This document shows positions 1,965 to 62,160 of a DNA stretch of 64,000 nucleotides, piece by piece (the first letter of the stretch is position 1; each line of letters begins with the position of its first letter). The DNA comes from Candidatus Kaiserbacteria bacterium RIFCSPHIGHO2_01_FULL_54_36. Lineage in GTDB: Bacteria > Patescibacteriota > Minisyncoccia > Phycocordibacterales > UBA2100. The notes under the pieces are model-generated. The model saw only the letters and a program-made list of their open reading frames with translations. It did not search any database and was not told where the DNA came from. The DNA lies in assembly GCA_001781105.1 (NCBI GenBank), contig MFKV01000007.1, positions 4,912 through 68,911 on the forward strand, written 5' to 3'. The position numbers and the translations under genes are program-made.

Positions 1965-1970
1965 TATTTG

Positions 1971-10512: not shown

Positions 10513-10568
10513 GAGTTCATGAAGCCGAGGTGAAAGAGTGCCAAGCTGTTGCCGTCTCAAGAATACGA

Positions 10569-11603: not shown

Positions 11604-11696
11604 TGGTGCGCTGTAATCAATCTAAGTCTCATTCGTCCTAGTACTAGCCGTCCAAACACATACAGGGCGGCATCGTTATAAGTTCAAAAAAACATC

Positions 11697-12494
11697 ATGA
11701 AGAAAAGCAATAAGGTAAATAAGTATCTTCTCGCATCTGGTGCTGCAGCACTTGCCCTGCTCGTCGCTTTGCCCGTGCTTGCCGACTCGGATCGCGAGGA
11801 TCGATTACTAAGGGTAAAGGAGAACTTCGGCTTCGGCGCGATGGTCAAGTTGTTCGACAACGATAACGACGGCAACAGTGGCCGTGAGAATCGCGACCGC
11901 AATAATCGCGATGGCCGAAAGGGTGATAATGGCGCCTCCGCACAGGCGTTAAGCTCGTTGAACTCGGTAAAGAGCTCCGCAGCTATCGCTGGCCACATCA
12001 CGGCGATCAACGGCACGCAGATAACAGTCCAGAGTGCCAACGGCACGATCTACACTGTCGACGCTTCGAACACGGGCTTCGCTGGTAACCTCGGCGCGGC
12101 TGTGATCGGCGACCTTCGCGTTGGCGATCGCGTGGTTGTCCGCGGAGAATTGAACGGTACGGTCATGACCGCCAAGAAGATCCATGACTTCTCCCTCATG
12201 CAGCGCACAATCCTCAATGTGGTCGGCGCAGCGGGCGCCGGGGTCGTGTCCTCTATCGACGGGCAGACATTCACGATTCATCCGATCAGTAAGCTGGCTA
12301 CGACGACGGTAACGACGGATGCCACAACGGTCTTCCGTGTGAACGGCGTTGCGACGACATCGGATGCGCTCGATGTGGGCTCGAGAGTCATCGTCTTCGG
12401 CACCTCGACTTCTGACACAAGCATCACTGCTTCGTTCGTAAGCATCTTGAATCACAGCTTCGGCTGGTTCAAGCACTTCTTCCTCTTCCGATAA
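11697..12494 (+). CDS. secreted protein with repeated small beta-domains (DUF5666-like)
   Basis: Signal peptide MKKSNKVNKYLLASGAAALALLVALPVLA and repeats of the form ITAINGTQITVQSANGTIYTVD. Confidence 0.55.
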   Translation: MKKSNKVNKYLLASGAAALALLVALPVLADSDREDRLLRVKENFGFGAMVKLFDNDNDGNSGRENRDRNNRDGRKGDNGASAQALSSLNSVKSSAAIAGHITAINGTQITVQSANGTIYTVDASNTGFAGNLGAAVIGDLRVGDRVVVRGELNGTVMTAKKIHDFSLMQRTILNVVGAAGAGVVSSIDGQTFTIHPISKLATTTVTTDATTVFRVNGVATTSDALDVGSRVIVFGTSTSDTSITASFVSILNHSFGWFKHFFLFR

Positions 12495-12514
12495 GGTAAG
12501 AGTGAAATAGAAAA

Positions 12515-12550
12515 CAGCCCCGACGTTCCGTCGAGGCTGTTTTCTTTCTC
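12515..12550 (+). terminator. intrinsic terminator
   Basis: Bulged hairpin CAGCCCCGACG-ttc-CGTCGAGGCTG followed by TTTTCTTTCTC. Confidence 0.6.
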
Positions 12551-12753
12551 CCATCTCGCCGCCGCACACCCGATCGCTCGTCTCGTCGGGCGGCTCCACC
12601 TTCTTTTCATCATCTGCTTTCTTAGGTGCGGGCTTCTTGACTTTTTCTTTCGCCGCTTTGCGCGCCGCCTCGTCCCGCAGCCATTCCTCGTGCTCGTAGT
12701 CTGGTGCCATGTGCCAATTATACTCCGCGACGCACAATGCTAGAATTGCTGAC

Positions 12754-15025: not shown

Positions 15026-15060
15026 AGGATACAGGTTCTAAATTCTTCGACAAGCCAATA

Positions 15061-15084
15061 TATGCTAATTCGCGCGAATTAGAA
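15061..15084. promoter_or_regulatory. ArsR-type operator copy between the second ArsR gene and tgt
   Basis: TATGCTAATTCGCGCGAATTAGAA matches the perfect palindrome at 15355..15383 in 22 of 26 positions. Confidence 0.45.
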
Positions 15085-15345
15085 GGTATTGAATACGGCA
15101 GCCAGGATTTTGGGAGCACTTGGGGATAGGTGATAGAACACATTTACACTACGCTGCTCCTTGCCGATGAAACCGGCTCGCTCAAGCATATTTAAATGTT
15201 TGGAGGTCGAGGTAAAAGACAAGCGAATCGCTTGCGAAATTGCCGTTACGTCCGCTTCCTTCTTCCGGCGTAAAAAGTCGAGGATCGCCAGGCGCCTTCT
15301 GTTGGCTAGCACTTTCAGCTCCCGTTCCGCCGCAATACTGTTCAT
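15079..15345 (-). CDS. ArsR/SmtB family transcriptional regulator
   Basis: LKVLANRRRLAILDFL...SFTSTSKHLNML. Start taken at the internal MNSIAAE. Confidence 0.75.
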   Translation of the reverse strand: MNSIAAERELKVLANRRRLAILDFLRRKKEADVTAISQAIRLSFTSTSKHLNMLERAGFIGKEQRSVNVFYHLSPSAPKILAAVFNTF

Positions 15346-15354
15346 CTTCCAACT

Positions 15355-15383
15355 ATATGCTAATTCGCGCGAATTAGCATATA
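15355..15383. promoter_or_regulatory. perfect 26-nt palindromic operator TATGCTAATTCGCGCGAATTAGCATA upstream of the second ArsR gene
   Basis: Perfect inverted repeat about 10 nt upstream of the ArsR start codon. Confidence 0.5.
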
Positions 15384-22520: not shown

Positions 22521-22625
22521 TGAGCGACAACACGGACGCACGCGGTTAACCGCGTGCGTCCACTCTTTATCCACCTATTCCGGACGTTTACGGCGAGGTT
22601 TTTTGTGGTACAATCCCCTTTTCTC

Positions 22626-29527: not shown

Positions 29528-30067
29528 TCAAGCTTTAGTGTACACAACCCCAGCTCCAGTTTTGCCGACTCTCCTTACCCGTCCTTCTTTCACGAGGATC
29601 GAGAGGTAGCGTGTAGCCGTTGCATCCGAGACGTGCAAAAGTTTCTCGACATCGTTGTTGGTTACTTGTGGTGAGCTTGTCGAACCATCCTGTTTCTTCT
29701 CTTCGAACATCGCCATGATCCTATCGAGCTTCTTTTGTTTCCGCTCCTGAGTTTTCGCATGGCCTTTCATGAGCAGCTCACGGTTGCGAGTAATGGCGGG
29801 AGTTGAAGCACTCGTTGGCGGAGTGGTAGGCGGCTCCTGCGGTGGGGTAAACGGCTCAGTCTGGATACTCAACGGCTCATCGACCGGTCGATGAGCCGTT
29901 CCCACTTCCGGCTGAGCCGTTTTACCCTGAGCATCGTCGATGGGTTGCTCCGCTGGCTCTGCCGGGGCTTCCTGTGACGGCGTTGCTGGCTCCGACGCGC
30001 CTTGCCCTTCCGTAGCCTCGGGCGAAGGAGGGGTTGCAGCGGGCTGCGATGTATCGTCGTCGGCCAT
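29528..30067 (-). CDS. DNA-binding protein with a Pro/Ala/Glu-rich disordered N-terminus and a C-terminal winged HTH
   Basis: C-terminal VEKLLHVSDATATRYLSILVKEGRVRRVG HTH. Start ambiguous. Confidence 0.5.
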   Translation of the reverse strand: MADDDTSQPAATPPSPEATEGQGASEPATPSQEAPAEPAEQPIDDAQGKTAQPEVGTAHRPVDEPLSIQTEPFTPPQEPPTTPPTSASTPAITRNRELLMKGHAKTQERKQKKLDRIMAMFEEKKQDGSTSSPQVTNNDVEKLLHVSDATATRYLSILVKEGRVRRVGKTGAGVVYTKA

Positions 30068-33968: not shown

Positions 33969-35435
33969 ATGTCGGAGCAGGATATACGCGCTGAGCGGCT
34001 GAAGAAGCTCGAACTTCTGAAGGAGGCGGGCATGGAGGCATACCCGACTTCAACCGCGCGCGACGCTTCCATCGCGGATTTTTTGAGCGTTTTCAAGGAA
34101 TTAGAAACAAGCGGCCGGCAATCAGTGATTGCCGGCCGCGTCATGTCTTTGCGCGGGCAGGGCGGTATTACATTTGTTGACCTCTTTGATGGAACAGGTA
34201 AAGTCCAACTTGTTCTCCAAAAGTCCAAATCCGATGAGGTGACACCTCATCGGTTCCAACTGTTTGTAGATGTCGTTGATATGGGAGATCTTATCGAAGC
34301 CGCTGGTGTTGCGTACGTCACGAAGCGCGGAGAGCAATCACTTAAAGTACAGGAGTGGAAAATGCTTGCAAAGTCCCTGTTGCCGATCCCGACAGAGCAT
34401 TTTGGTATCAAAGACGAAGAACTGATCCTGCGCCAGCGATACCTCGACATTCTTCTCAACGAAGACGTGCGCAAAATGTTCGAACGCCGCGCGCGATTCT
34501 GGCAGGCGGCACGAGAGTTCTATCTCTCTCGGGGATTTCTCGAGGTCGAGACGCCGGTTCTCGAAACGACGCCAGGCGGCGCCGACGCGCGTCCATTCAA
34601 GACGCACCACCACGCACTCGATATCGATGTGTACCTGCGCATTTCCGTAGGCGAGCTATGGCAGAAAAAACTCCTCATCGCTGGATTTCCGAAAGTATTC
34701 GAGATCGGGCGCGTATTCCGCAACGAAGGCCAATCCCGCGAGCACTTGCAGGATTACACACAACTTGAATCATATGAGGCATATGCTGATGCGAAAGCAG
34801 GGATAGAATTCCTCAAAGAGTTCTATCGGTATATTGTGAAAGAAACGTACGGGCAGTACACTTTCAAGATAGGCGAGCACGAAGGTGATTTTGCAGCAGA
34901 GTGGCCATCCATTGATTTTTGCGAAACGATACAAAAGGAGTACGGCATAGACCCGGTTACCGTTTCTGAGGACGACGCCATTGCCGCGGCGAAGAGTGCG
35001 GGCGTGCAATTCGGCGAAGCGCCAAATAAACTGCGAGCATTAGACGGATTATGGAAACTCATACGCAAGAAGATCTCTGGCCCGGCATTTCTGACTGGCG
35101 TACCGGTATTCCTCGAGCCTCTGGCAAAGCGCGTTCCAAGCAATCCAAATATCGTGGATCGTATTCAGGTGATCCTCGCTGGCTCCGAAATGGGGAAGGG
35201 GTACAGTGAGCTCAACGACCCGCAGGATCAACGCGCGCGCTTCGAGGAGCAGCAGAAACTGCGCGACGCGGGCGACGACGAAGCGCAGCGCCTCGACGAG
35301 GATTACATTCGGGCGATGGAGTACGGCATGCCGCCAGCTTTCGGTTTCGGCGTCTCTGAGCGACTTTTCTCGTTCCTCGAAAATCGCCCGGCCCACGAGG
35401 CGCAACTGTTCCCACTTGTACGCCCGAAAAAGTAG
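33969..35435 (+). CDS. lysS: lysine--tRNA ligase (class II)
   Basis: N-terminal OB-fold anticodon-binding domain and class II motifs (motif 2 FRNEG, motif 3 GFGxGxxRL). Confidence 0.9.
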   Translation: MSEQDIRAERLKKLELLKEAGMEAYPTSTARDASIADFLSVFKELETSGRQSVIAGRVMSLRGQGGITFVDLFDGTGKVQLVLQKSKSDEVTPHRFQLFVDVVDMGDLIEAAGVAYVTKRGEQSLKVQEWKMLAKSLLPIPTEHFGIKDEELILRQRYLDILLNEDVRKMFERRARFWQAAREFYLSRGFLEVETPVLETTPGGADARPFKTHHHALDIDVYLRISVGELWQKKLLIAGFPKVFEIGRVFRNEGQSREHLQDYTQLESYEAYADAKAGIEFLKEFYRYIVKETYGQYTFKIGEHEGDFAAEWPSIDFCETIQKEYGIDPVTVSEDDAIAAAKSAGVQFGEAPNKLRALDGLWKLIRKKISGPAFLTGVPVFLEPLAKRVPSNPNIVDRIQVILAGSEMGKGYSELNDPQDQRARFEEQQKLRDAGDDEAQRLDEDYIRAMEYGMPPAFGFGVSERLFSFLENRPAHEAQLFPLVRPKK

Positions 35436-38036: not shown

Positions 38037-40055
38037 GTGAAATTTAAGATCAGATCACACTATAAACCCGCCGGCGATCAGCCGACAGCTATTGCTGCAC
38101 TCGTGAAGGGCTTGGAGGGAGGCGTGCGCGATCAGACGCTATTGGGTGTCACCGGCTCGGGCAAGACATTCACTGTGGCCAATGTCATCGCCCAGGTGCA
38201 GCGCCCGACGCTGGTGATCGCGCACAACAAGACGCTCGCGGCGCAGCTCGCTGCCGAGTACCGCGAATTCTTCCCCGATGCAGCCGTACACTACTTCGTT
38301 TCCTACTACGATTACTACCAACCAGAGGCCTATGTGCCCGTTACGGACACGTATATTGAGAAGGAAGCACAGGTCAATGAAGACATCGAGCAGCTGCGGC
38401 ATGCGGCTACGCAGGCCCTGCTCACGCGAAAAGACGTGATCATCGTAGCCTCCGTATCCTGCATCTACGGCCTCGGCAGCCCCGTCGAGTATGAGAAAGT
38501 GAATTTGAAACTGACAAAAAGCGAAGCGATGACTCGCGCCACGCTCACCCGCAAGCTCATTTCTATTTATTTCGATCGAGTGACTGGTGATCTGAAGCCC
38601 GGCACCTTCCGCGCGCTCGGGGCTACTGTAGAGATCATGCCGGCAAGTGAGCGCGTGATATATCGAGTAGATCTGACGGGCGGGAAGATCGCGAAGATAG
38701 AAGAGATCGACGCAACAACGCGTGAAATTCAAGGCAAGCAGGAGGCACTCTTTATTTTCCCGGCACGGCAGTATGTGACGCCAAAAGACGTACAAGATGC
38801 AGCCCTTGCCGATATCGAGCTCGAGCTTGCAGAGCAGCTCAAGAAGTTCGATACACAAGGCAAGATCCTCGAAGCGGAGCGCCTCAAGCGTCGCACGCGC
38901 CAAGATGTCGCGATGATACGCGAGTTCGGCTTCTGCAATGGCATCGAGAACTACTCGCGGCATTTCGATAGGCGAAAGCCCGGCGAGCCGCCGTATACAC
39001 TTCTCTCCTACTTTCCAAGAGATTTCCTGACGGTCATTGATGAGTCGCACGTGACGGTGCCCCAGATCGGCGGCATGTATGCCGGCGATCGCTCGCGCAA
39101 GAACACGCTCGTCGAGCACGGCTTTCGCCTGCCAAGCGCCGTAGACAATCGACCCCTGCAGTTTGAAGAATTCCGGGAGCGGACAGGGCAGACGCTTTAT
39201 ACCTCGGCGACACCCGCACAGTTTGAGCTCGAGAAGAGCGGCGTGCCTGTGTCACAAGTTATTCGCCCGACCGGGCTCATAGACCCCGAGATCATCGTTC
39301 GCCCAATAGTCAGCGGTTCAAAATATGGACACGGCGTGTCCATATTTCCTGGACAAGTGAAAGATTTTATCGCCGAGGCAGAGGCGGTAACGAAGAAAGG
39401 CACTCGCTCGATGGTGACGGTGCTTACCAAGAAAATGGCGGAAGACCTGACGGCGTTCCTCGTAGAAAAACACATCAAGGCGCGGTATGTGCACAGCGAT
39501 GTTCTCACTATCGAGCGCATTGAGATATTGCGCGATTTCCGCAAAGGGGTCTTCGATGTCTTGGTAGGGGTCAACCTCTTGCGCGAAGGACTCGACTTGC
39601 CGGAAGTTGAGCTAGTGGGAATTCTCGATGCCGACAAAGAAGGCTTCCTGCGTTCTGAGACATCGCTCATCCAGACTATAGGGCGGGCGGCGCGCAACGT
39701 GCATGGCCGCGTCATACTGTATGCAGATCAGATGACGGGCTCGATGGAGCGTGCGATTGGCGAGACCAATCGCCGTAGGGTTATTCAGGTAGCGTACAAC
39801 AAAAAGCACAAGATAACGCCAAAGACGATCATAAAGCGCATCCACGACATCGTGGGCGATATCGAACGTGCCCGCAAGCGCGCAGTCGCCGATCTGGTAG
39901 CCTTGGATAAAGCAGCCTTCGGTGGCGACACGGCGAAGCTTCTTCGCGAAAAGCGCCGCCAAATGCACGACGCAGCGGATCGGCTCGACTTTGAGACTGC
40001 AGCGCTCCTGCGGGATGAGATACTTACCCTTGAGAAGGGTGTGAAGAAGAAATAG
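38037..40055 (+). CDS. uvrB: excinuclease ABC subunit B
   Basis: GVTGSGKT Walker A, helicase motifs, and a C-terminal UVR domain. GTG start. Confidence 0.95.
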   Translation: MKFKIRSHYKPAGDQPTAIAALVKGLEGGVRDQTLLGVTGSGKTFTVANVIAQVQRPTLVIAHNKTLAAQLAAEYREFFPDAAVHYFVSYYDYYQPEAYVPVTDTYIEKEAQVNEDIEQLRHAATQALLTRKDVIIVASVSCIYGLGSPVEYEKVNLKLTKSEAMTRATLTRKLISIYFDRVTGDLKPGTFRALGATVEIMPASERVIYRVDLTGGKIAKIEEIDATTREIQGKQEALFIFPARQYVTPKDVQDAALADIELELAEQLKKFDTQGKILEAERLKRRTRQDVAMIREFGFCNGIENYSRHFDRRKPGEPPYTLLSYFPRDFLTVIDESHVTVPQIGGMYAGDRSRKNTLVEHGFRLPSAVDNRPLQFEEFRERTGQTLYTSATPAQFELEKSGVPVSQVIRPTGLIDPEIIVRPIVSGSKYGHGVSIFPGQVKDFIAEAEAVTKKGTRSMVTVLTKKMAEDLTAFLVEKHIKARYVHSDVLTIERIEILRDFRKGVFDVLVGVNLLREGLDLPEVELVGILDADKEGFLRSETSLIQTIGRAARNVHGRVILYADQMTGSMERAIGETNRRRVIQVAYNKKHKITPKTIIKRIHDIVGDIERARKRAVADLVALDKAAFGGDTAKLLREKRRQMHDAADRLDFETAALLRDEILTLEKGVKKK

Positions 40056-41040: not shown

Positions 41041-43683
41041 ATGGCAGAAAAAGATATAGGGGCAGATAAGATCGTCATAAAAGGCGCACGGACACATAAT
41101 TTGAAAAATGTGTCAGTGGAGATTCCGCGCAATAAAATGGTGGTGTTTACGGGACTTTCAGGCAGCGGCAAGTCCTCGCTTGCGTTCGACACGATCTTTG
41201 CCGAAGGGCAACGAAAGTACGTTGAGTCTCTTTCAGCATACGCGCGACAATTTTTGCGCCAAATGCAAAAGCCCGATGTTGACGAGATATCCGGCCTCTC
41301 ACCGGCAATTTCTATCGACCAAAAGAGCCGCTCCAACAATCCTCGCTCCACCGTCGCGACCATAACTGAGATCTACGACTACCTGCGTGTCCTCTACGCT
41401 CGCGTCGGGAAGCCGCACTGCATAGAGTGTGGGCGAGAAGTGCGAAAGCTTTCCAACGAGGAAATCCTGGAGTCTGTGCTAAGCATCGTTGAAGGCGCGA
41501 GAAAGGGCGATGGTCGACCTCGTAGGTCGACCATGCTGACGAAAGGAGTTTCGAATGCGAAGATCCGCATCAGTGCTCCGGTCGTGGTGGGCCGCAAGGG
41601 CGAGTACTACCAGCTCCTCTACGACATGCTCAATAAAGGATTTGAGAAAGTTATTATTGATGGACAAGAAACGTCACTACGCACACGAATAGATCTCAAG
41701 AAACATTTCAAGCACGACATAGATATTGTGGTAGACGAAATATTCATCTCTGAGTTTACCGATGATGCAAAAGCCGCACACGAGCGCGCCAGCGAGGCTA
41801 TTGAGCGGGCGCTGCATGAAGCGGGCGGCCTGGTAAAAATTACCGACGCAGAAGGGCAATCACGCATCGTATCCGCAAAATTCATGTGCCCGTACGACGG
41901 GTTCTCGTTCCCCGAGATAGAGCCGCGGCTCTTTTCCTTCAACTCGCCATACGGCGCGTGCCCGGAGTGCAAAGGCTTGGGCACGAAGTATTTTTTCGGC
42001 GATGAGCCGTGCGATATATGCCAGGGCGCCCGCTTGCGTCCCGAGGCGCTCAATGTGTTTCTGGGCAAAGTGGAGGAGCCGGCAGAGCACAATGGTCCAG
42101 CCATAGGGACCAATATCGTACATCTTTCGTCGCTTTCGATTGAGGACGCGATGGATTTCTTCAACGGGCTGAAGCTCACCAAGAAAGAACAAGAGATCTC
42201 AAAGGCCGTCATCAAAGAGATCACGAGCCGCCTCCAATTCATGCTCAATGTCGGTATCGAGTACCTAACGCTCGATCGTAAGGCCAATACGCTCTCAGGG
42301 GGTGAGGCGCAGCGCATTCGGCTTGCTTCTCAACTCGGTAGCGGGCTTGTGGGTGCCTTGTACGTGCTCGATGAGCCCACCATAGGACTTCACCAACGCG
42401 ACAACGACAAGCTCATACAGACCCTTCAGCGCCTGCGCGATCTCGGCAACACCGTGCTCGTCGTCGAACACGACGAAGACACGATATTCGCTTCTGATTA
42501 CATCGTGGATCTTGGCCCCGGTGCCGGTGTACACGGCGGTGAGATCGTCGTGTCGGGATGGCTAGACGATCTTTTGACCGCGAAAACCAATAAGTCGGGC
42601 TCTCGAACGCTCGGATATTTGCGCGAAGAGGAAGCCATTCCTATACCGGAGAAACGTCGCACCGCCGACCGAGGGAAGATAAAAATACGCGGCGCTTCCA
42701 AATTCAATATCCAGAATATGAATATTGATGTACCACTCGCGAAGTTCGTCGCCGTTTCGGGAGTTTCCGGCTCGGGCAAGTCCACATTTCTGTATGAAAT
42801 TCTCCATCGCAACCTGCAAGCACGCTTCGACAAGCGTTATCGAACTGCGAAAACCTACAATGCAAAAGAATTTTCCGGCACCGAGTATCTCGGCCGGGCG
42901 ATATTGATAGATCAATCGCCGATCGGGCGCACGCCCCGCTCGAATCCTGCCACCTACACGGGAGCCTGGACCCACATCCGCGATATGTTCGCGATGTCGG
43001 AAGAGGCCCGAGCGCGCGGTTGGGGCCCCGGGCGCTTCTCGTTCAACGTGAAAGGTGGGCGCTGCGAAGCGTGCCAGGGCAACGGCCTCATTGCCGTAGA
43101 GATGCACTTCTTGCCGACCGTGTATGTCACCTGCGACGTGTGCAACGGCAAGCGATTCATGAAAGAAACACTGGAGGTCAAATTCAAGAACAAAAACATT
43201 CACCAGATACTTTCGATGACCGTCGAAGAAGCGCGAGCATTCTTCGATGATATTCCCGCAATCGCAGACCGCCTGCAGAGCTTATCTGACGTTGGGCTCG
43301 ATTACCTTGAGCTCGGGCAAAGCGCGACAACGCTTTCCGGCGGGGAAGCACAGCGCGTGAAGATCGCCTCAGAGCTGTATCGCCCACTCATCCAGAAGAG
43401 CATCTACTTGCTCGATGAGCCGACGGTCGGCTTGCACTACGACGACGTCGCGAAGCTTATCCAAATACTGCAGAAGCTTGTCGAGCGTGGCAACACGGTC
43501 GTCACGATCGAGCACAACCTAGATGTCTTGAAATCCGCGGATTACATCATTGATATGGGCCCGGAAGGCGGATCCGCGGGCGGCGACATCGTCGCGAAGG
43601 GGACTCCTGAAGAAGTTTCTAAAACTGATGGTTCGCACACAGGCTATTACTTGAAACGAGTTTTGAAAAAATCCCGCAGGTAG
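41041..43683 (+). CDS. uvrA: excinuclease ABC subunit A
   Basis: Two ABC ATPase modules ([18 protein letters not shown]), zinc-finger CxxC pairs, LSGGE signatures. Contains the in-frame 25-nt palindrome at 41510..41534. Confidence 0.95.
41510..41534. repeat. 25-nt perfect palindrome ATGGTCGACCTCGTAGGTCGACCAT, in-frame inside uvrA (encodes DGRPRRSTM)
   Basis: 10-nt arms containing two SalI-type GTCGAC cores. Identical copies at 47670 and 60160; a compensatory variant at 45770. Confidence 0.85.
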
Positions 43684-43835: not shown

Positions 43836-46800
43836 TTATGAACGATACTCCTCCCACGACTTCGCTTTCAACCCATTGCCTTTCTGTTCCGCAAGCGCTG
43901 TCACGAAGGCCTCTGCGAGCTGGCGGTTGGTGATGAGCGGAATGTTCATATCTACCGCTTTGCGGCGGATGATGGAGCCGTCGGTCGTCTCGCCGGCGAA
44001 GGCACGCGTCGGGATATTGATGATGAGATCCATTCTACCGAGCGCCTCGGAGACATTGGGCGCTTTTTTACTGCTGATCTTGTAGAGCTTTTCACATGGC
44101 AGGCCAGACTCATGCAAATATTCTGCAGTATGCTCTGTCGCAAAGAGTTTGAATTTCGTATTAGAAAGCAGTTTCATCGTTTCCAGTAGCTTCACCTTGC
44201 TCTCCTCGCCGCCGATTGAGACGAGGATATTTTTGCGCGGCAAGCGAAAGCCGGCAGCCATCATGGACTTGAGGAGTGCTTCAGAGTAGGAATCCCCGAA
44301 ACAGGCGACTTCGCCTGTGGACGCCATTTCTACACCTGTCCGTGGGTCAGCGCCTTTGATGCGGCTGTATGAAAATTGTGGCGATTTGACTGCAACACAA
44401 TCGAGTTCGACCGTGCGGTAGTTGCCCGAGACATCCTTGCCAAGCATTGCACGCGTAGCAATGTCAATGAAATTGTGTCCGGTGACTTTGGAAACGAAGG
44501 GGAAGCTGCGCGAGGCGCGCACGTTGCATTCGATGACTTGCAAGCGATTATCCTTTGCTATGAACTGCATGTTGAAGGGCCCGGTGATCTTGAGGGCTTT
44601 GATAATTGCTTTGGTGATCTCTTTGGCACGGCGGATAGTCTCCAGATACGTGCGCTGCGGAGGAAGCACTACCGTAGCGTCACCAGAGTGCGTGCCGGCA
44701 TTCTCCACGTGTTCGGTAATGGCATAGATAGCGAGTGTGCCGCGAGAAGCGACGCCATCGATCTCGATCTCCCGCGCGTTCTCTATGAATTTGGATATGA
44801 CGACCGGATGTTCAGGCGACATGATGGCCGCGCGGTCCAAAAAATTCTGAAGCGTTTTCCTGTCGTACGCGACCTTCATTGCCGCGCCTGACAGGACGTA
44901 TGACGGGCGCACGAGTACGGGGTACCCGATTGTCTCAGCGACAGCTGCTGCCTGTGAGGGAGAGGTGACTTCCGTCCATGCCGGCTGCTCTACTCCGAGC
45001 GTATCGAGAAGCTTGGAGAACACATGCCTGTCTTCCGCGCGGTCGATATCCTCCGGATTCGTGCCGAGAATTTTGATCTTGTTCTTATGGAGTTTAAGCG
45101 CAAGATTGTTGGGGATCTGGCCGCCGGTCGAGACCACGACCCCCTCGGGCTTTTCGAATTCCACGATATCGAGAATGCGCTCGAGCGTAAGCTCTTCGAA
45201 GTAGAGCCGATCCGACATGTCGTAGTCGGTCGAGACAGTCTCCGGATTCGAATTGATCATAATGGTGCGCTTACCGCAGGCCTTCAGCGTCTTCAGCGCC
45301 TGCACGCACGACCAGTCGAACTCGACCGATGACCCGATGCAGTATGGGCCCGAACCCAGCACTGCAACCTGCTTTTTTCCCGGGATGACGTCGTGTTCAG
45401 TGCCATGATAGGTGAGATACAGATAGTTCGTCTGCGCGGGGAATTCGCCTGCGAGCGTATCGATCTGTTTGACTACCGGCAGAATCCTTAGCTTTTTGCG
45501 CAGTGCGCGTACAGACTCTTCGTTAATCTTTTTTATCACTGCAATTTGCGCATCAGAAAATCCGAGCTTCTTTGCTGCTTGCATCGTTTGCTTATTGAGG
45601 CGGTTCTTCGAGATGTGACGCTCGAACTCTACGATGTTGCGCATCTTCTCCAAAAACCACCGATCGATCCCCGAAAGTTTGTGAATCTTCTCTACCGACG
45701 TTCTTCTACGAAATGCCGCTGCGATCGCAAAAATTCTTCGGGTCGTAGGTATCCTGACCTCTTTTTCGCATGATGGACCTCGTAGGTCCATCATTGTTGC
45801 CGGAAGCGAGAATCCACTCGCACCTACATTTAGCATGCGAAGCGCTTTTTGCAGCACCTCTTCGAACGAGCGGCCGATCGCCATCACTTCGCCTACGCTT
45901 TTCATTTCTGTCCCGATACGTTGTGCGGCATTCTCAAATTTGCCCAAGTCCCAACGCGGCATCTTGAGCACCAAATAATCGAGCGCTGGCTCGAAGCAGG
46001 CGGTCGTGATACCCGTGACGGAATTTTTGATCTCGGGCAGCGTGTAGCCGAGTGCGAGTTTGGCCGCGACGAACGCCAACGGATAGCCGGTCGCCTTCGA
46101 AGCGAGTGCCGATGAGCGGCTTAGGCGCGCATTGACCTCGATGACGCGGTAATCTGCTGTCTCGGGGTGCAGTGCATATTGGATATTGCACTCGCCGACG
46201 ATTCCCAAGTGTCGAATGGTCCTGATAGAAATTTCGCGCAGCCGATGGTATTCCTCATTGGAGAGTGTTTGAGAAGGAGCGACTACCATGCTCTCGCCTG
46301 TATGTATTCCCATCGGATCGATGTTTTCCATGTTGCACACGGTGATGCAGTTATCGGCCCTGTCGCGCACGACTTCGTATTCGACCTCCTTCCAGCCGCT
46401 TAGGTTTTCCTCGATGAGTACTTGCGGAGTCGACCTGAATACTTCCGAAAGCTTCGCGGACAGTTCCTCCGTATTTTTTACCATTCCCGACCCTTCACCA
46501 CCGAGAGCAAATCCCGCGCGCATCATGACGGGGTAGCCAATGTCCGCCGCGGCTGCGAGTGCCTCTTTCGTATTTTTTGCAGCGCGGCTGCGAGCAGTCT
46601 TTACTTCTATCTCATGGAGGCGCTTCACGAAAAGGTCGCGATCTTCCGTGTCGCGAATCACCGATACAGGCGTACCAAGTACGCGCACGCCGAATTTCCT
46701 GAGAGTGCCACTTTTCTCGAGCGCGAGGCCGAGGTTGAGCGCTGTCTGGCCACCGAATGAGAGAAGGATCGCGTCAGGCTTTTCTTTCTTGATCACCTGC

Positions 46801-47018
46801 GTTGCGAAGTGCTCGGTAAGGGGAAGGAAGTACACGGTATCTGCCAGGCCTTGGTCGGTTTGCACGGTCGCGATGTTGGGATTCATGAGCACTACCTCGA
46901 TCTTTTCTTCCTTCAGTGCCTTGATCGCTTGTGAGCCGCTGTAGTCGAATTCTCCCGCCTGGCCGATCTTCAGACCACCGCTGCCAAGCAATAATACTTT
47001 TTTGAGTTTATGCTTCAT
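43836..47018 (-). CDS. carB: carbamoyl-phosphate synthase large subunit
   Basis: Duplicated ATP-grasp halves, oligomerisation domain and MGS-like domain. 1060 aa. Confidence 0.95.
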   Translation of the reverse strand: MKHKLKKVLLLGSGGLKIGQAGEFDYSGSQAIKALKEEKIEVVLMNPNIATVQTDQGLADTVYFLPLTEHFATQVIKKEKPDAILLSFGGQTALNLGLALEKSGTLRKFGVRVLGTPVSVIRDTEDRDLFVKRLHEIEVKTARSRAAKNTKEALAAAADIGYPVMMRAGFALGGEGSGMVKNTEELSAKLSEVFRSTPQVLIEENLSGWKEVEYEVVRDRADNCITVCNMENIDPMGIHTGESMVVAPSQTLSNEEYHRLREISIRTIRHLGIVGECNIQYALHPETADYRVIEVNARLSRSSALASKATGYPLAFVAAKLALGYTLPEIKNSVTGITTACFEPALDYLVLKMPRWDLGKFENAAQRIGTEMKSVGEVMAIGRSFEEVLQKALRMLNVGASGFSLPATMMDLRGPSCEKEVRIPTTRRIFAIAAAFRRRTSVEKIHKLSGIDRWFLEKMRNIVEFERHISKNRLNKQTMQAAKKLGFSDAQIAVIKKINEESVRALRKKLRILPVVKQIDTLAGEFPAQTNYLYLTYHGTEHDVIPGKKQVAVLGSGPYCIGSSVEFDWSCVQALKTLKACGKRTIMINSNPETVSTDYDMSDRLYFEELTLERILDIVEFEKPEGVVVSTGGQIPNNLALKLHKNKIKILGTNPEDIDRAEDRHVFSKLLDTLGVEQPAWTEVTSPSQAAAVAETIGYPVLVRPSYVLSGAAMKVAYDRKTLQNFLDRAAIMSPEHPVVISKFIENAREIEIDGVASRGTLAIYAITEHVENAGTHSGDATVVLPPQRTYLETIRRAKEITKAIIKALKITGPFNMQFIAKDNRLQVIECNVRASRSFPFVSKVTGHNFIDIATRAMLGKDVSGNYRTVELDCVAVKSPQFSYSRIKGADPRTGVEMASTGEVACFGDSYSEALLKSMMAAGFRLPRKNILVSIGGEESKVKLLETMKLLSNTKFKLFATEHTAEYLHESGLPCEKLYKISSKKAPNVSEALGRMDLIINIPTRAFAGETTDGSIIRRKAVDMNIPLITNRQLAEAFVTALAEQKGNGLKAKSWEEYRS
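45770..45794. repeat. variant 25-nt palindrome ATGATGGACCTCGTAGGTCCATCAT, in-frame inside carB (encodes MMDLRGPS)
   Basis: Same central CCTCGTAGG. Arm changes are compensatory (G-to-A with C-to-T, and C-to-G with G-to-C), so the palindrome is preserved. Confidence 0.8.
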
Positions 47019-48112
47019 ACCTTCTTCAATGAGCGGATGAAGTCGTCGAAGATCCAGGCGGTATCTGTGGGGCCGGGCGAGGCCTCGGGGTGGAATTGCA
47101 CCGAGCGCCAGGGCTTGCTCTTGTGCCGTATCCCTTCGTTGGAGCCGTCATTGGCGTTCACAAACCACTCTTCCCACCCTTCGGGAAGCGTTTTTCCGTC
47201 TACGGCGAAGCCGTGATTTTGGGAGGTGATGTAGCATTTACCCTGAGCGGAGTCGAAGGGCCGGCCACCCTTTAGTTCAATGCATGGCTGGTTTTGGGAG
47301 CGATGGCCGTATGTAAGCTTGTACGTCGAGGCACCCGCCGCGAGCGCCAAGAGCTGGTTGCCAAGGCACACTCCCAGTATCGGTTTGTTGTCCTTCATAG
47401 CTGCGCGAATATGCCCTATCGGGATGCCGCACTGCGTCGGATCACCAGGGCCGTTGGAGAGAACGAGCGCATCGTACTTATCGGAAGTGAAGTCGTAATC
47501 CCACGGTACTCGCGTCACGGTGGTTTCGGGTCGTATGAGCGAGCGGACGATGTTCTCTTTCATTCCGCAATCGAGCGCAATTATTTTGATCGGGCCAGTA
47601 CCGTATGTCTTCTTTTTCCTCGGACTGACTTTTGCAACAAGATTTTCGTCGTTTGGATCCTTGAACTCCATGGTCGACCTCGTAGGTCGACCATGCTCCA
47701 ATCGCCCCAGCATTACCCCGTGTTCGCGGAGCTTCTTCGTAAGTGCGCGGGTGTCTACTCCAGTGATCGCCGGCACACCGGAGGCTTTGAGCCATTCGGC
47801 AAGTGAGTGCTTGGCATCGTGATGAGAATAGTTCTCCGAGTATTCCGAAACGACGAGCCCTGCTATTTGTATCTTGGACGACTCGAAGTTTTTGTCGGGC
47901 TTGCCCTTCGAAGCCTTGGCGAAGGAGGGCACGCCGTAGTTGCCGACCAGCGGATAAGTGAGTACTACGATCTGACCGGCGTATGAAGGATCTGAAAGAC
48001 TTTCAACGTAACCCGTCATCCCAGTGTTGAAAACGACCTCACCAGGGACGTTCTTCGGAGCACCAAAGCTCTGGCCCTCGAACACTGAACCGTCTTTGAG
48101 AATCAATTTCAT
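47015..48112 (-). CDS. carA: carbamoyl-phosphate synthase small subunit
   Basis: CPSase small-chain N-domain plus class I GATase (Cys-His-Glu triad context GVCLGNQLL). Overlaps the carB start by 4 nt. Confidence 0.95.
   Translation of the reverse strand: MKLILKDGSVFEGQSFGAPKNVPGEVVFNTGMTGYVESLSDPSYAGQIVVLTYPLVGNYGVPSFAKASKGKPDKNFESSKIQIAGLVVSEYSENYSHHDAKHSLAEWLKASGVPAITGVDTRALTKKLREHGVMLGRLEHGRPTRSTMEFKDPNDENLVAKVSPRKKKTYGTGPIKIIALDCGMKENIVRSLIRPETTVTRVPWDYDFTSDKYDALVLSNGPGDPTQCGIPIGHIRAAMKDNKPILGVCLGNQLLALAAGASTYKLTYGHRSQNQPCIELKGGRPFDSAQGKCYITSQNHGFAVDGKTLPEGWEEWFVNANDGSNEGIRHKSKPWRSVQFHPEASPGPTDTAWIFDDFIRSLKKV
47670..47694. repeat. 25-nt palindrome ATGGTCGACCTCGTAGGTCGACCAT, in-frame inside carA (encodes HGRPTRSTM on the gene strand)
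   Basis: Identical to the uvrA copy. Lies in the linker between the CarA N-domain and the GATase domain. Confidence 0.85.
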
Positions 48113-51797: not shown

Positions 51798-54032
51798 ATG
51801 AAAAATCTCTACGAGCATATCGCAACCGTTGCGAAAGCTGAGCCGAAAAAGGTAGCATTGATTGGAACAGATGAGAAGGGAAATAGCGTCGAGGAGATCA
51901 CGTATGCAGAACTGCTAGAGAAAATACAGGCAGCGGCGGCAGAGCTAAAAGAGTTAGGACTTGAAAGAGGTGACAGGATAGCGCTCGCATTTCGTAATTC
52001 CCCCGTGCTCCTTATATGGAGCTGGGCGGCTTGGGCGAGTGGGATCGTGACGGTGCCAATGGATACCAAGCGCGATACTCCCGAACTTTACGAATACAAG
52101 ATTAATCTCAACAAAGCCAAAGTCCTTATCCTCGAGCGCGGCATCCAGGCAGTGAAGCTCCCCGGCGTCCGCATCAAAGTCCATACTGAATTTGATTCAC
52201 GGCAAGGCAAGGCCTTGCCGTACCCTGTTGGCTGGGAAGGGGGGCTTGGGCATCAGGCGCTTGTTCTTTTCACTTCTGGCACGACCGGACACCCGAAAGG
52301 TGCCATGCTTTCGCTTGAGAATCTCATTGTGAACGCCGAGGGAATCCGTGAATGGCTGCGCATCACGGGCGACGATACATTTCTCGTCAACCTTCCGCTC
52401 CACCACATCAACTCCACCACCTTTTGTCTTTCTGTACTCCTCGCGGGAGGCACCATCGCTATTCCGCCCAACTATTCCAATTCGCATTTTTGGCATCAGA
52501 TGGGAAAGACAGGTGCGACTATCTCGTCGGTCGTGCAATCGATTGTATTCGACCAGCTCCACCGCAAGGCGGAGTTCGAGGCCCTGAAAGACAAGATCAA
52601 ACTCAACAGGATCCAGATCGGTTCGGCGCCGGTCGTCGCGCAATCGGTGCAAGAATTCAAAAAGCAATTCGGCATCCCGCTTTATCAAGGTTACGGTCAG
52701 ACGGAAACAGCGCTTCGCGTCACGGGCGTACCCATGGACATTCCGGATCCACTGTATGCGCAGTTGGTTGACGAGAATTCGATAGGTACTCCGATGGCAT
52801 GGGCAGACCTGCAAATCACCGATGACGAAGGCAAGATACTGGGCGAGGGCGGTGAGGGTGAGCTGGTGGTGAAAGGCCCTGCGGTGATGGAAGGATATCT
52901 CGGGCGCGAGCCGGCGTTCCGCGACGGATATTTTCTCACGGGCGATATCGGCTACTACAAAACAATTGATGGCAGGAAATACTTTTATCTCAAGGGCCGG
53001 AAGCGCGAGATCATCATCAAGGGCGGCGTCAATATTTCACCGGTTGCGGTAGAGAACTCCCTGAAGCGAATTTCCCCGGACATCGAGCAAGTCCACGTGG
53101 TTGCTGTGCCAGATGAGCGCTACGGTGAGGAAGCCGGTGCTGTCATCTCGTGGAAAGAGGGAATTGACGAAGATCGTGCGAAGCGGCAGCTCAAAACTGC
53201 GCTTCTACTCGGCTCTCCATATATCAGTGCATACGAGACGCCCAAGTACATTACCTCGCTTCCAGTCGCAGAGCTCCCGATGACTTCCACAGGCAAAGTC
53301 CAGCGCAGCGTCCTCAAAACACAGCTTCCATACGAAAAATTCGAATCGATCTACGGCCTCCTCAAGACTACTGACTATCGCTTCACGGTTTTGCATCGCT
53401 ATTCGAGGTGGCAACAAGCGTCCCTCGATCTCCACAACCAATGTTGGGCGCCGCTTAGAATGGACAAAGGGGAATATGACAAATTCATAACCCGCCCACT
53501 GACTATTCTTGCCGCCAATCCCGATGAGTCTCTTGCCGGACAGATCGCCGTTGTTCGTACCAATCTTTCCGAAGCAGAGATCCTCAAGAAAACATATTCA
53601 GAGTTGGTTGCCGAAAGCTTCGACAGGACAGGCAATACGCTTGTGTGTGTTTCTATTTGCAGCGCCGACTATTCGCCAAAGACAATTCCTGATGTAACTA
53701 AGCATCCAAGCGCAGACGACGTTCGCGCGTATGTAGAAGCAGGCACCGACCCAGTAATGAAATTCCATCAGAAGCCAAAAGGTGGGCTCTCGGAAGGTGC
53801 GAAACTTATAGATGTTATCGAAAATGGCCGGCCGGAAGACAGAAGCTCGCTGGGGTACAACATGCTCCTCAAATATCCTGAGCCCTCGGATAACGTTGCG
53901 ATAACTCCCGGGGCCCCGATCTCCAACCAGCTTATCGAAATCGTTTTGCTCATCGCGCGCGATCTCGGCATCAAAAACGTCTACGCCTACTCTCGCCCCG
54001 GTGGCTTGGCTGCGTATTTATCCCGAGCGTAG
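51798..54032 (+). CDS. AMP-dependent synthetase/ligase (adenylate-forming) fused to a ~240-aa C-terminal domain of unknown function
   Basis: TSGTTGHPKG and YGQTE adenylation motifs in the first ~500 aa; the C-terminal part has no recognised motif. The ATG lies 3 nt after the tRNA-Ala discriminator. Confidence 0.75.
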   Translation: MKNLYEHIATVAKAEPKKVALIGTDEKGNSVEEITYAELLEKIQAAAAELKELGLERGDRIALAFRNSPVLLIWSWAAWASGIVTVPMDTKRDTPELYEYKINLNKAKVLILERGIQAVKLPGVRIKVHTEFDSRQGKALPYPVGWEGGLGHQALVLFTSGTTGHPKGAMLSLENLIVNAEGIREWLRITGDDTFLVNLPLHHINSTTFCLSVLLAGGTIAIPPNYSNSHFWHQMGKTGATISSVVQSIVFDQLHRKAEFEALKDKIKLNRIQIGSAPVVAQSVQEFKKQFGIPLYQGYGQTETALRVTGVPMDIPDPLYAQLVDENSIGTPMAWADLQITDDEGKILGEGGEGELVVKGPAVMEGYLGREPAFRDGYFLTGDIGYYKTIDGRKYFYLKGRKREIIIKGGVNISPVAVENSLKRISPDIEQVHVVAVPDERYGEEAGAVISWKEGIDEDRAKRQLKTALLLGSPYISAYETPKYITSLPVAELPMTSTGKVQRSVLKTQLPYEKFESIYGLLKTTDYRFTVLHRYSRWQQASLDLHNQCWAPLRMDKGEYDKFITRPLTILAANPDESLAGQIAVVRTNLSEAEILKKTYSELVAESFDRTGNTLVCVSICSADYSPKTIPDVTKHPSADDVRAYVEAGTDPVMKFHQKPKGGLSEGAKLIDVIENGRPEDRSSLGYNMLLKYPEPSDNVAITPGAPISNQLIEIVLLIARDLGIKNVYAYSRPGGLAAYLSRA

Positions 54033-60061: not shown

Positions 60062-60664
60062 TCAACGCCTGCTTTCTATCGCGCTCTTGATGGTGTCGGG
60101 ATCTGCGTATTCCAATTCGCTGCCGGTCGAGAGCCCGCGGCCCAGCGCCGTAATCTTCAATGGTCGACCTCGTAGGTCGACCATTTTCTTTCTGACTTGT
60201 TCTGCAGTCGCGTCGCCCTCGGGATTCGCAGGGAATGCGAGTATGATTTCCATTAATCCCGCTTTTGTTCGAGCGGGCACGGCCTCAAGAAGCTGCTTCA
60301 TGCGCAAATTGTTGCCCGTATCGCTTGCGAGCGAGACAGTACCGCCGAGTACAAAGTAGTGCCCGCGGAAATTATGCGAATGTTCGAGGGCGGCAAGGTC
60401 CGCGTCACTTGCGACGACAGCGAGAAGTGAGGCATCACGTCCAGGATCCGTACAGATCGCGCAGACTTTCTCTTTTCCGCTAAAGAAGCGCATGCACTCT
60501 GCACACTGGTGCACCGAGCCGCCAAGCGATTGCACCGCATCCATTAGTTCGCGACGCGTCGCAGCGGAGGAGCGCAGCAAAAATTGCACGAATCGTTGCG
60601 CTTGGCGCGGACCGATACCGGGAAATCTTTCGAATAATTGAGTCAGTCGTTCTATCGAGTCCAT
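60062..60664 (-). CDS. recR: recombination protein RecR
   Basis: HhH motif FPGIGPRQAQR, C4 zinc finger CAECMRFFSGKEKVCAIC, Toprim domain. Contains the in-frame 25-nt palindrome at 60160..60184. Confidence 0.9.
   Translation of the reverse strand: MDSIERLTQLFERFPGIGPRQAQRFVQFLLRSSAATRRELMDAVQSLGGSVHQCAECMRFFSGKEKVCAICTDPGRDASLLAVVASDADLAALEHSHNFRGHYFVLGGTVSLASDTGNNLRMKQLLEAVPARTKAGLMEIILAFPANPEGDATAEQVRKKMVDLRGRPLKITALGRGLSTGSELEYADPDTIKSAIESRR
60160..60184. repeat. 25-nt palindrome ATGGTCGACCTCGTAGGTCGACCAT, in-frame inside recR (encodes MVDLRGRP)
   Basis: Identical to the uvrA and carA copies but read in a different frame. Confidence 0.85.
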
Positions 60665-60765: not shown

Positions 60766-62160
60766 TCAAAACGGCGATTCGCCAGAGCCTGCAACTTCCG
60801 TTTCTTCAGGTTTGTAATCGCCGAAGTCGCTCCTATCAATAGAGAGGAAGGTCGTCTTTTCTTCGTCGAAGCGGAGCTCCACTTTGCCGACCGGCCCGTT
60901 GCGATGTTTTTCTACCAAGATCTCGGCAATGCCGGGCCGGTCGGAATTCTCATTCATCTTGTCGTCACGATGGATGAACATTACGACATCGGCGTCTTGT
61001 TCGATGGAGCCCGAATCGCGAAGATCCGATAGCCGTGGGCGGCCTCGTCGTTGCTCAACCGCGCGTGATAACTGCGAAAGTGCCAAGACGGGGATCTCAA
61101 GCTCGCGCGCCATAGCCTTGAGTGAGCGGGAGATCTCAGTGATCTGCTGTACCAGATTGTCGCTCGAGCGCGAATAGGTGGGGGTGATGAGTTGCAGATA
61201 ATCCACGATGATGAGCCCGAGGTCTTTTTCCATTTTGAGCCGGCGCGCGACACTACGCATTGCAAGGACGGTCGTCGAAGCCTTGTCGTCAATATAGATC
61301 GGTGCCTCAGCCAAAACTCCCATACCTGACTGCAATCGCTCGAATTCGTCTTCATCTTTTATCTTGCCGGTGCGAAGCCGCCATGAGTTGACGCCGGCCT
61401 GCGCGGCAAGCATGCGATCCACAAGCTGCTGGGAGCTCATCTCGAGCGAGAAGATGCCGACGGGCACGTTGTACTTCGTTGCGCTCTGGCGTGCGATGTC
61501 GAGCGCAAGGGCGGTTTTGCCCATTGAGGGGCGGGCGGCGAGTATGACGAGGTCGGATTTTTGGAAGCCGGCGAGCAAATTGTCGAGCTGAGGAAAGCCC
61601 GATGGCACGCCGCGAATGGAGCCGCTGTGCTTCTGGAGTCCCTCAAGCCGCTCCCATGCTTCAGCGAGCTCGTCTTTGATGGCAGTGAAAGAGCGCAGCA
61701 TCGGCGTCTGCGTCACGGAGAAAACTGCAGACTGTGCCTCGTCGAGGATCGTCTCGATATCCCGGTCCTCTTCAAAGCCCAGTTCTCCGACCTTCGCCGC
61801 GGCATCAATAAGGCTGCGCAATACGAATTTCGTCTGCACCCCTTGCGCATAATGCCGTGCCGAGCCGGGGCTCGCGGCTGCACCAACCATCTCGGAGAGG
61901 TATGCCGCCCCACCGATCTCGTTCAAGAGTTTGCGCTCCTTGAGCTTGCTAGAAAGCGTTACGACATCGATCGGTTCACCCTTCGCAAAAAGCGCAAGCA
62001 TGGCGTCGTATATAGTGCGATGTTTGCCGGCATAGAAGGAGTCCACGCCGACCAAGTCTGCGACCTCGTAGATCGCATTTTGGTTGAGCATGAGAGCTCC
62101 AAGGAGAGCTCGCTCCATTTCTATGTCTTGCGGCGGCGCTTTTACGCTGCTGGTTCCCAT
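60766..62160 (-). CDS. dnaB: replicative DNA helicase
   Basis: Walker A GARPSMGKT and DnaB N- and C-domains. 464 aa with no intein. Confidence 0.95.
   Translation of the reverse strand: MGTSSVKAPPQDIEMERALLGALMLNQNAIYEVADLVGVDSFYAGKHRTIYDAMLALFAKGEPIDVVTLSSKLKERKLLNEIGGAAYLSEMVGAAASPGSARHYAQGVQTKFVLRSLIDAAAKVGELGFEEDRDIETILDEAQSAVFSVTQTPMLRSFTAIKDELAEAWERLEGLQKHSGSIRGVPSGFPQLDNLLAGFQKSDLVILAARPSMGKTALALDIARQSATKYNVPVGIFSLEMSSQQLVDRMLAAQAGVNSWRLRTGKIKDEDEFERLQSGMGVLAEAPIYIDDKASTTVLAMRSVARRLKMEKDLGLIIVDYLQLITPTYSRSSDNLVQQITEISRSLKAMARELEIPVLALSQLSRAVEQRRGRPRLSDLRDSGSIEQDADVVMFIHRDDKMNENSDRPGIAEILVEKHRNGPVGKVELRFDEEKTTFLSIDRSDFGDYKPEETEVAGSGESPF

Follow-up and report, generated by a model that had tools for sequence, protein, structure and literature searches.

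Repetitive extragenic palindromes (REPs) and the tyrosine transposases associated with them (RAYTs) have been well described (PMC2817692, PMC3116915, PMC5581495, PMC8266576), and Corneloup et al. 2021 (PMC8266576) still call the mechanism by which REPs are disseminated poorly understood. REPs lying wholly within open reading frames (ORFs) are also known from the work of Di Nocera et al. 2013 (PMC3733652), who found many of them in genes for replication and repair, among these the uvrA genes of Thioalkalivibrio and Opitutus; such intragenic in-frame REPs have been reported for Thioalkalivibrio, Opitutus terrae and Rickettsia, and the same authors related them to the Rickettsia palindromic elements (RPEs) (PMC3733652). 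Here we analyse a 25-nt palindrome in recR of Candidatus Kaiserbacteria bacterium RIFCSPHIGHO2_01_FULL_54_36, using a stretch of 64,000 nucleotides of contig MFKV01000007.1 (the window) together with related sequences from public collections. We suggest, with a probability of roughly 0.75, that the palindrome is a copy of a REP-like hairpin family, that this family is the cognate DNA of a RAYT-like transposase of the Y1 type with a His-hydrophobic-His (HUH) motif, and that permissive protein loops tolerate the copies, which are translated with them. In a full-text literature search we found no report of REP/RAYT systems in Patescibacteria or the Candidate Phyla Radiation (CPR). Intragenic REPs themselves are already known; what is added here is the extension of REP/RAYT-type hairpin elements to the CPR.

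A direct reading of the window gives ATGGTCGACCTCGTAGGTCGACCAT at 60160-60184, and together with the flanking A/T pair this forms a perfect 12+3+12 hairpin (AATGGTCGACCT-CGT-AGGTCGACCATT, 60159-60185), with a predicted single-stranded DNA folding energy of -12.5 kcal/mol and a z-score of -7.3 against shuffled sequences. In the sense of the gene, the copy is read ATG GTC GAC CTA CGA GGT CGA CCA, i.e. MVDLRGRP. A preliminary description of this DNA had noted that recR carries the same palindrome as uvrA, and the two are indeed identical at 25/25 positions (60160-60184 and 41510-41534); the third identical copy is in carA. Outside of these 25 nt, a comparison of the flanks of the recR, uvrA and carA copies found no shared sequence. 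The exact 25-mer thus occurs three times in the window, compared to no matches in 100 dinucleotide-preserving shuffles, and the octamer GGTCGACC occurs 7 times where 0.99 are expected. A fourth member of the family, in carB, was absent from the list in the preliminary description and was found by scanning for perfect hairpins with 3-nt loops; relative to the main type its changes are compensated in both arms. All four host ORFs are intact and in frame. MMDLRGPS, the peptide encoded by the carB hairpin, is found again in a transposase orthologue of another genome (P0237), at its internal site.

In all four hairpins of the window, the + strand is the one with CGT (the GTAG-containing strand), regardless of the orientation of the gene (n=4, P = 0.125). 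By analogy with IS200/IS605 elements, this may hint at a coupling to the direction of replication. The GC skew is mostly positive along the window and changes sign near recR; given this sign change and the small number of copies, we draw no conclusion on an orientation bias. A T-rich run (+ strand), as in an intrinsic terminator, follows the recR copy only and is not found after the uvrA and carA copies, as judged without a dedicated terminator scan. Further, degenerate copies with 7-8 of 11 pairs and a CGT or ACG loop were not clearly more frequent in the window than the background of other loops, and a candidate in dnaB at 62056-62080 was rejected, as it reads as ordinary DnaB N-terminal sequence.

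The strongest evidence for the nature of the palindrome comes from elsewhere in the same genome. Public collections were scanned for the core pattern GGTCGACCTNNNAGGTCGACC, which yielded 35 genome loci and 69 metagenome loci, and no matches on viral contigs. The majority of these loci hold unrelated palindromes of other phyla; many matches in high-GC soil bacteria, Eremiobacteria and others were considered unrelated palindrome families or chance, and were set aside. On one metagenome contig (L085, identical to L092) the full 25-mer occurs twice, in inverted orientation and 729 nt apart, with an ORF for a transposase between the two copies; the three identical copies of the window match both of these flanking copies at 25/25 positions. 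The protein encoded by this ORF is 100% identical to P0121, which has the locus tag A2763_04250; P0001, to which the window's RecR is 100% identical, has the locus tag A2763_02575, and the common prefix A2763 places transposase and RecR in the same genome. A third, slightly degenerate copy, TGGTCGACCTCGTAGGTCGAAC, lies inside the coding sequence (CDS) of the transposase and is read VVDLVGRT. A Y1/HUH transposase gene between inverted 25-mers is the very layout that defines a REP/RAYT unit (Nunvar 2010, PMC2817692).

The same layout, with other types of stem, is found at two further loci (L094 and L107). In all three genomes the transposase gene adjoins gap, and each has a hairpin immediately upstream of it, another within the CDS, at a variable loop that is the same in all three, and a further one immediately downstream. 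At the A2763 locus, the ATGGTCGACCT stem occupies all three positions; in genome 53_29 (L094), ATATCTGGATTT is found upstream and inside the CDS and ATGGTCGACCT downstream; in genome 54_24 (L107), ATGTTCGACCT is found upstream and inside the CDS and ATGTCGGGATTT downstream. The orientations of the loops differ among the three loci as well. A peptide of the form (D/E)(L/F/I)(R/V/G) is found at the internal site in 29/29 aligned transposase orthologues. When L085 (2450-2568) is compared with L094 (3790-3905), a tract of ~110 nt comprising the 3' end of the transposase gene and the downstream hairpin is 100% identical, while the transposase genes are ~70% identical elsewhere, and the sequences are unrelated immediately past the downstream hairpin. 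The collapse of homology at this point indicates that the hairpin marks a boundary of recombination or synteny, and the identity tract would fit hairpins that act as recombination junctions. In addition, a TATACT motif is conserved after the upstream hairpin, 0-8 nt before the start of the transposase gene (L085 1840-1848, L094 3186-3200, L107 3782-3795); this may be the -10 box of a leaderless transcript, in which case the hairpin would be an operator-like site.

The transposase itself is ~225 residues long and has a conserved C-terminal extension, YRWSSYxDYCGxxNFPS. A2763_04250 scores 27 bits against the Pfam family Y1_Tnp (PF01797, IS200-like transposase), over a cut-off of 23. Among 29 orthologues, H82-Y83-H84 (the HUH motif), Y142 and the sequence Y-I-H-L-N-P are invariant. 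There are 3614 homologues at E<=1e-10, and those that are named come from Kaiserbacteria, Parcubacteria or Patescibacteria. A model built with AlphaFold (AF2) from the 29 orthologues is of only moderate confidence (pLDDT 64, pTM 0.62); its best matches in the PDB using Foldseek are IS608 TnpA, ISDra2 TnpA and, at rank 4, the E. coli RAYT with its REP hairpin (4er8). The top matches 2a6m, 2xo6 and 4er8 have E-values of 1e-4 to 4e-4 with a probability of 1.00, and the TM-scores, normalised by target length, are 0.52-0.65. The predicted structure thus combines an IS200/IS605-type fold with a His-hydrophobic-His motif and a catalytic Tyr.

The hairpins follow a common design, with a perfect stem of 11-12 bp and a T-CGT-A apical loop, which is sometimes flipped from CGT to ACG. 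Across 20 hairpins the CGT loop, its closing T:A pair and the G8:C20 pair are invariant, while 9/11 stem pairs have changes on both sides; as the set was selected for at least 9/11 pairs, no evidence can be drawn from the paired fraction as such. At a threshold of at least 10/11 pairs, CGT and ACG loops account for 16 hairpins in 166 kb of Kaiserbacteria DNA, compared to 27 for the other 62 loop triplets together. The main type contains GTAG (CGTAGGTC) and the other types GTAA, in each case spanning the junction of loop and stem.

The coordinates of the hairpins, of their host genes and of the transposase locus are collected in the table below. The recR copy lies in the hypervariable linker between ...RVREE and LKIT.LGRGLSTGSELEYAD, and in comparison to orthologues the net change in length is 0 codons; for the uvrA copy it is likewise 0 codons. 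The carA linker is 3 codons longer both than that of the syntenic contig L109 and than those of the shortest orthologues. Every copy in the window is found in a loop or linker that tolerates insertions and deletions. Judged by these lengths, the copies look more like a replacement within hypervariable loops than like a clean insertion of 25-27 nt: either an insertion was followed by compensating deletions in plastic loops, or a hairpin replaced another hairpin or other sequence of similar length.

Coordinates of the hairpins, their host genes and the transposase locus; positions are those of the window, except for L085, where they are those of the contig.
Feature	Position	Strand	Description
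Hairpin in recR	60160..60184	+	ATGGTCGACCT-CGT-AGGTCGACCAT; CGT loop on + strand
Hairpin in uvrA, identical	41510..41534	+	GGT CGA CCT CGT AGG TCG ACC ATG = GRPRRSTM
Hairpin in carA (minus-strand gene), identical	47670..47694	+	read GRPTRSTM
Hairpin in carB (minus-strand gene), variant	45770..45794	+	ATGATGGACCT-CGT-AGGTCCATCAT; read MMDLRGPS
recR, host gene	60062..60664	-	200-aa ORF; Pfam domains Toprim_4 and RecR_C
uvrA, host gene	41041..43683	+	hairpin in variable-length loop between ...VEGARK and LT.GVS.AKIRIS
carA, host gene	47015..48112	-	hairpin in linker between N-terminal and GATase domains
carB, host gene	43836..47018	-	hairpin segment of 15 codons in place of ~14 ancestral (+1)
L085 hairpin, CGT loop	1815-1839		upstream of transposase ORF
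L085 transposase ORF	1846-2528		227 aa; MEVELYH...GNHYHLLV...HYIHLNPLDF...
L085 hairpin, ACG loop	2544-2568		downstream of transposase ORF

In other Kaiserbacteria, the same codons of recR hold other members of the family. L105 has ATGTCGGGATTT-ACG-AAATCCCGACAT, and L106 has the stem of L105 with the loop flipped to CGT; while the two genes are only 72% identical overall, the 24 stem bases are identical. L108 has AATGATGGGTTT-ACG-AAACCCATCATT and L112 has ATGATCGACCT-CGG-AGGTCGATCAT; three codons off, L111 has AACCATCAAGGC-GAC-GCCTTGATGGTT, which belongs to another family of palindromes. The peptides encoded at these orthologous sites (CRDLRNPDI, CRDFVNPDI, MMGLRNPSL, NHQGDALMV) are unrelated. 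In uvrA, the syntenic relative L109 (87% amino-acid identity) has a decayed hairpin with two arm mismatches at the same codons (GATGTCCGACCT-CGT-GGGTCGAACATC), and the same loop of L110 (~10475-10515) holds an unrelated, perfect 40-nt palindrome, CAAGGTGCGACCTCGGGGAATTCCCCGAGGTCGCACCTTG, in an assembly with many frameshifts. No palindrome is present at the carA and carB sites of L109, nor at the carB site of L110.

Two further observations concern L109. Its uvrA (10001-12649) is called as two ORFs of 464 and 408 residues, possibly because of a frameshift or because it is a pseudogene. At 4936-4981 it has two overlapping inverted hairpins, ATTAACGACTT-ACG-ATGTCGTTAAT and ATAACGACAT-CGT-AAGTCGTTAT, which are in frame in a zincin-like gene; by analogy, this pair resembles a REP doublet (REPIN).

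The preliminary description placed particular weight on reading frames. As it stated, the recR copy is read one frame away from the copies in uvrA and carA (MVDLRGRP as opposed to GRPRRSTM and GRPTRSTM), and frame 2 of the + strand does hold a stop (TGG TCG ACC TCG TAG). Taking the intragenic copies from all loci together, five of the six combinations of frame and orientation are used: with the loop in the CGT orientation, frame a (VDLVGR-type) and frame c (GRPRRS-type); in the ACG orientation, frame a (VDLRGR-type), frame b (TTYDVV, in the zincin-like gene of L109) and frame c (GRPTRS-type). The sixth combination, the CGT orientation in frame b, always gives a TCG TA(G/A) stop and is never seen among these copies. 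That the TAG frame is never used thus holds for the copies seen, but carries no statistical weight: with ~8 independent intragenic sites the probability of its absence is (5/6)^8 = 0.23, and so the proposed test for depletion of the stop-containing frame is uninformative; in any case, purifying selection would lead to the absence of this frame. Similarly, the description of the insertion as frame-agnostic is borne out as far as frames are concerned, while insertion as such is unsupported by the net changes in length. The statement that the element is constrained only by stop codons is too strong, since all copies are confined to indel-tolerant loops or linkers.

In many respects the system is like the REP/RAYT pairs (also called REPtrons). 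It consists of short (20-40 nt) repeated palindromes with stems that stay paired through compensated changes and with a conserved GTA(G/A), and perfect palindromes are a recognised group of REPs. A single Y1/HUH transposase gene lies between two inverted copies of the genome's own repeat, and the syntenic position of this gene beside gap would fit a vertically inherited RAYT. The host lineage, the CPR or Patescibacteria, sets it apart from classical REP/RAYT systems, as does the hairpin inside the transposase CDS in every orthologue examined; also unlike those systems, stems differ and loops are flipped between species at identical codon positions of recR, uvrA and the transposase gene.

A number of observations weigh against a REP/RAYT-like interpretation. 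While classical REPs are present at high copy number and mainly extragenic, the window has only 4 copies per 64 kb, all of them inside ORFs of 200-1060 residues. The conserved GTA(G/A) is at the junction of loop and stem and not at the 5' foot as in classical GTAG-REPs; the T-CGT-A motif forms the apical loop instead of a 5' head outside the hairpin. No transposase gene was found in the window itself using tblastn. One transposase for one hairpin sequence does not describe the family either, as there are several stem types within a single genome. A clean insertion is not visible (the net changes are 0, 0, +3 and +1 codons); the unit of 25 nt is not a multiple of 3, and no consistent target-site duplication was seen by eye around the copies, the carA copy alone having GGAG on either side.

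The transposase is longer than classical RAYTs and divergent, and it fails the curated RAYT signature: against the NCBIfam model for REP-associated tyrosine transposases (NF047646) it reaches 34.6 bits, below the cut-off of 80. Searches by sequence, using either the transposase alone or a profile of 29 sequences, gave no relevant match in the PDB, and only the fold search succeeded. The signature of classical RAYTs consists of an N-terminal Thr and of NP(L/V)(R/K)xG beside the Tyr (Nunvar 2010, PMC2817692). Here, the conserved N-terminal Thr is missing, with LYHxLNRGV as the N-terminus, and in Y-I-H-L-N-P-L-D-F-L-K-G there is an NPL which is not directly followed by (R/K)xG. From its sequence, A2763_04250 is a putative RAYT-like protein and not a classical RAYT.

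Two other known systems are of interest for comparison. Like the RPEs of Rickettsia, as these are summarised in a later paper (Ogata et al. 2000, via PMC3733652), the Kaiserbacteria hairpins are in-frame palindromes in apparently functional housekeeping ORFs of a reduced genome, where the encoded peptide is tolerated. The Kaiserbacteria unit is 25-27 nt long with a net effect of 0 to +3 codons, and its sequence is unrelated to that of RPE-1. RPE-1, in contrast, is ~100-150 bp long and adds tens of residues, and we know of no cognate transposase for it. With the IS200/IS605 elements (IS608, ISDra2), the Kaiserbacteria transposase appears to share its fold, as these are the best Foldseek matches of the model; by analogy, a hairpin in single-stranded DNA would be the recognition element in both, and the spread may be coupled to replication. 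Unlike in IS200/IS605, the transposase gene appears neither repeated nor mobile, given the synteny of its locus; distinct ends on the left and right, with cleavage tetranucleotides, are lacking, and the dispersed units are bare hairpins without cargo.

Several other explanations have to be considered for the presence of the palindrome in these genes. In the main rival to the REP-like interpretation, which we consider unlikely, the hairpins are structures selected by the host at fixed gene sites, acting either on mRNA (pausing, stability, processing) or on DNA (as binding sites, or as landmarks of replication or recombination), and the transposase is a domesticated enzyme which maintains or reads the hairpins and does not mobilise them; the conservation of the sites would then reflect function. 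A hairpin is indeed found at the same codons of recR in 6/6 orthologues, of uvrA in 3/3 and of the transposase CDS at 3/3 loci, and the peptide pattern suggests an internal hairpin in all 29 transposase orthologues; the recR orthologues, however, were picked for hairpin-like peptides, so that this count is biased. That stems remain perfect where the flanking gene is only 65-72% identical, and that the loop and the G8:C20 pair do not vary, also speaks for selection on the structure. On the other hand, the carA and carB sites lack a hairpin in the close and fully syntenic L109, as does the carB site in L110, and the positions are unrelated to the start or stop of the genes or to domain borders. 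Moreover, the same loops are filled elsewhere by a CAAGGC-NNN-GCCTTG family and by the 40-nt palindrome, which fits a permissive slot better than a specific signal. Selection at the level of RNA would typically leave a pattern of G:U tolerance, which is not seen, and a search of the whole window against Rfam at the gathering threshold matched two tRNAs only and nothing at the hairpins.

If instead the encoded peptides were what is selected, the relevant part would be GRP or RGRP, which resembles the core of an AT-hook, a DNA-binding motif that would plausibly be of use in RecR and UvrA. All type-A copies do encode G-R-P (RGRP in RecR, GRPRR in UvrA), and two of the four hosts function in DNA repair; the occurrence of GRP in both frames, however, follows from the fact that both arms contain GGTCGACC. 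It is the nucleotides that are identical, at 25/25 positions with all synonymous ones included, while the peptides vary with the frame; LRNPD, FVNPD, GLRNPS, HQGDALM and others are encoded at orthologous sites, and the products of carA and carB are not DNA-binding proteins. The difference in frame, together with the presence of the same sequence to either side of the transposase gene, where the DNA is non-coding, effectively refutes a protein motif, which we hold to be very improbable. The conclusion of the preliminary description that this is a nucleic-acid element is, in turn, strongly supported by the inverted 25-mers around that gene, and is also backed by the fully compensated recR stems of other species with their unrelated peptides, and by the use of five of the six combinations of frame and orientation. 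We regard a signal for DNA uptake as just as improbable. CPR bacteria are believed to rely on taking up DNA, and the uptake sequences of Neisseria and Haemophilus are enriched in genome-maintenance genes, as which two of the four hosts here (uvrA and recR) also qualify; the sequence is over-represented, too. Known uptake sequences, however, are fixed 9-12-mers with roughly one copy per kb; four copies per 64 kb is far too low a density. Furthermore, the stem sequences differ within one genome and between close relatives, a perfect hairpin is needed instead of a fixed oligomer, and a Y1 transposase gene is specifically and physically linked to the element. One could also suspect chance, or an artefact of assembly or of a linker, because GGTCGACC, present as two octamers in the element, is the sequence of a SalI linker, and because GGTCGACCTNNNAGGTCGACC also occurs in unrelated genomes. 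This can be dismissed almost entirely, considering the lack of matches in the shuffled sequences, the intact and in-frame host ORFs, and the orthologous hairpins in other assemblies. In addition, there are records of the RecR with MVDLRGRP on 17 contigs, from assemblies of NCBI, JGI, ENA and Logan, four independent sources which show that the palindrome is not an assembly artefact, and the RecR variants P0002 and P0003 have a difference of one residue.

We thus favour the interpretation that the palindrome belongs to a REP-like family served by the RAYT-like transposase. In this scheme, the element would fold into a hairpin when DNA is single-stranded, for example at a replication fork; the transposase would bind the hairpin, and might cleave and rejoin single strands beside it. 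As an outcome, hairpins could spread between sites, be homogenised, or be swapped for other hairpins of equal length. In a compact genome, the surviving copies would be those in indel-tolerant surface loops and linkers, in any frame or orientation without a stop. The peptides MVDLRGRP in RecR and GRP(R/T)RSTM in UvrA and CarA would be a tolerated by-product of this, presumably neutral. A bolder version, which we offer as speculation and consider doubtful, is that recR, uvrA and the transposase gene have, at fixed codons, slots for hairpins that persist over long times, and that in these slots the Y1 transposase overwrites or flips hairpin cassettes of equal length; such HUH-mediated, frame-preserving conversion would continually rewrite short protein loops, and the hairpins inside the transposase gene and abutting its start could be a site for self-recognition or autoregulation.

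The hairpins account for hypervariable loops in RecR, UvrA, CarA, CarB and the transposase that would otherwise be read as fast-evolving protein; where they do so, they can mislead alignments, phylogenies and motif calls, the apparent AT-hook being an example. They also illustrate that in a genome with almost no intergenic space, elements of this type are found inside essential genes and are translated. With their fixed positions, swapped stems and flipped loops, the sites represent a tractable natural system for the study of how Y1 transposases disseminate and homogenise REPs.

Other palindromes were observed in addition to this family. A second family has the core CAAGG(C/T)-NNN-(G/A)CCTTG with variable loops; it occurs in the window at 52199-52221, in an ORF of 762 residues, and elsewhere in L085 (9300-9324), L094 (8346-8370), L111 (10491-10515) and L110 (7847-7881 and 14507-14535). 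In L111 a copy of this family forms the recR linker (NHQGDALMV), and in L110 one lies within carB. A third repeated family is represented by AAATATGGACAC-GGC-GTGTCCATATTT at 39321-39347 of the window, inside an ORF of 675 residues; the near-identical AAATATGGACGC-GCC-GTGTCCATATTT is found in L108 (9855-9881), just after the stop of dnaB and upstream of recR. In total, the window has ~17 perfect palindromes (arms of 10 nt or more, loops of 1-5 nt), compared to roughly 0.4 expected from 4^-10, and several of these, such as those at 34111-34139 and 22534-22561, lie within long ORFs. Two window sites ~300 nt apart, 15056-15091 and 15354-15383, have a common palindromic core, ATATGCTAATTCGCGCGAATTAG, and look operator-like, in a region without a long ORF. 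At 29844-29927, there is an imperfect palindrome of 84 nt without a spacer, 76% complementary, with repeated AACGGCTCA/TGAGCCGTT units. In other phyla, finally, the 10-bp palindrome AGGTCGACCT is found in longer arrays with CGT, ACG, TCG or CGA spacers and a period of 13 nt, inside larger palindromes. Such arrays are present in L010, L026, L008, L012 and L031 (a single-amplified genome of Omnitrophota, AM-312-B13), as well as in L003 and L007 (a metagenome-assembled genome of Planctomycetia) and in L006 and L013 (a metagenome-assembled genome of Gammaproteobacteria); those of L010 and L026 lie within ORFs of ~500 residues.

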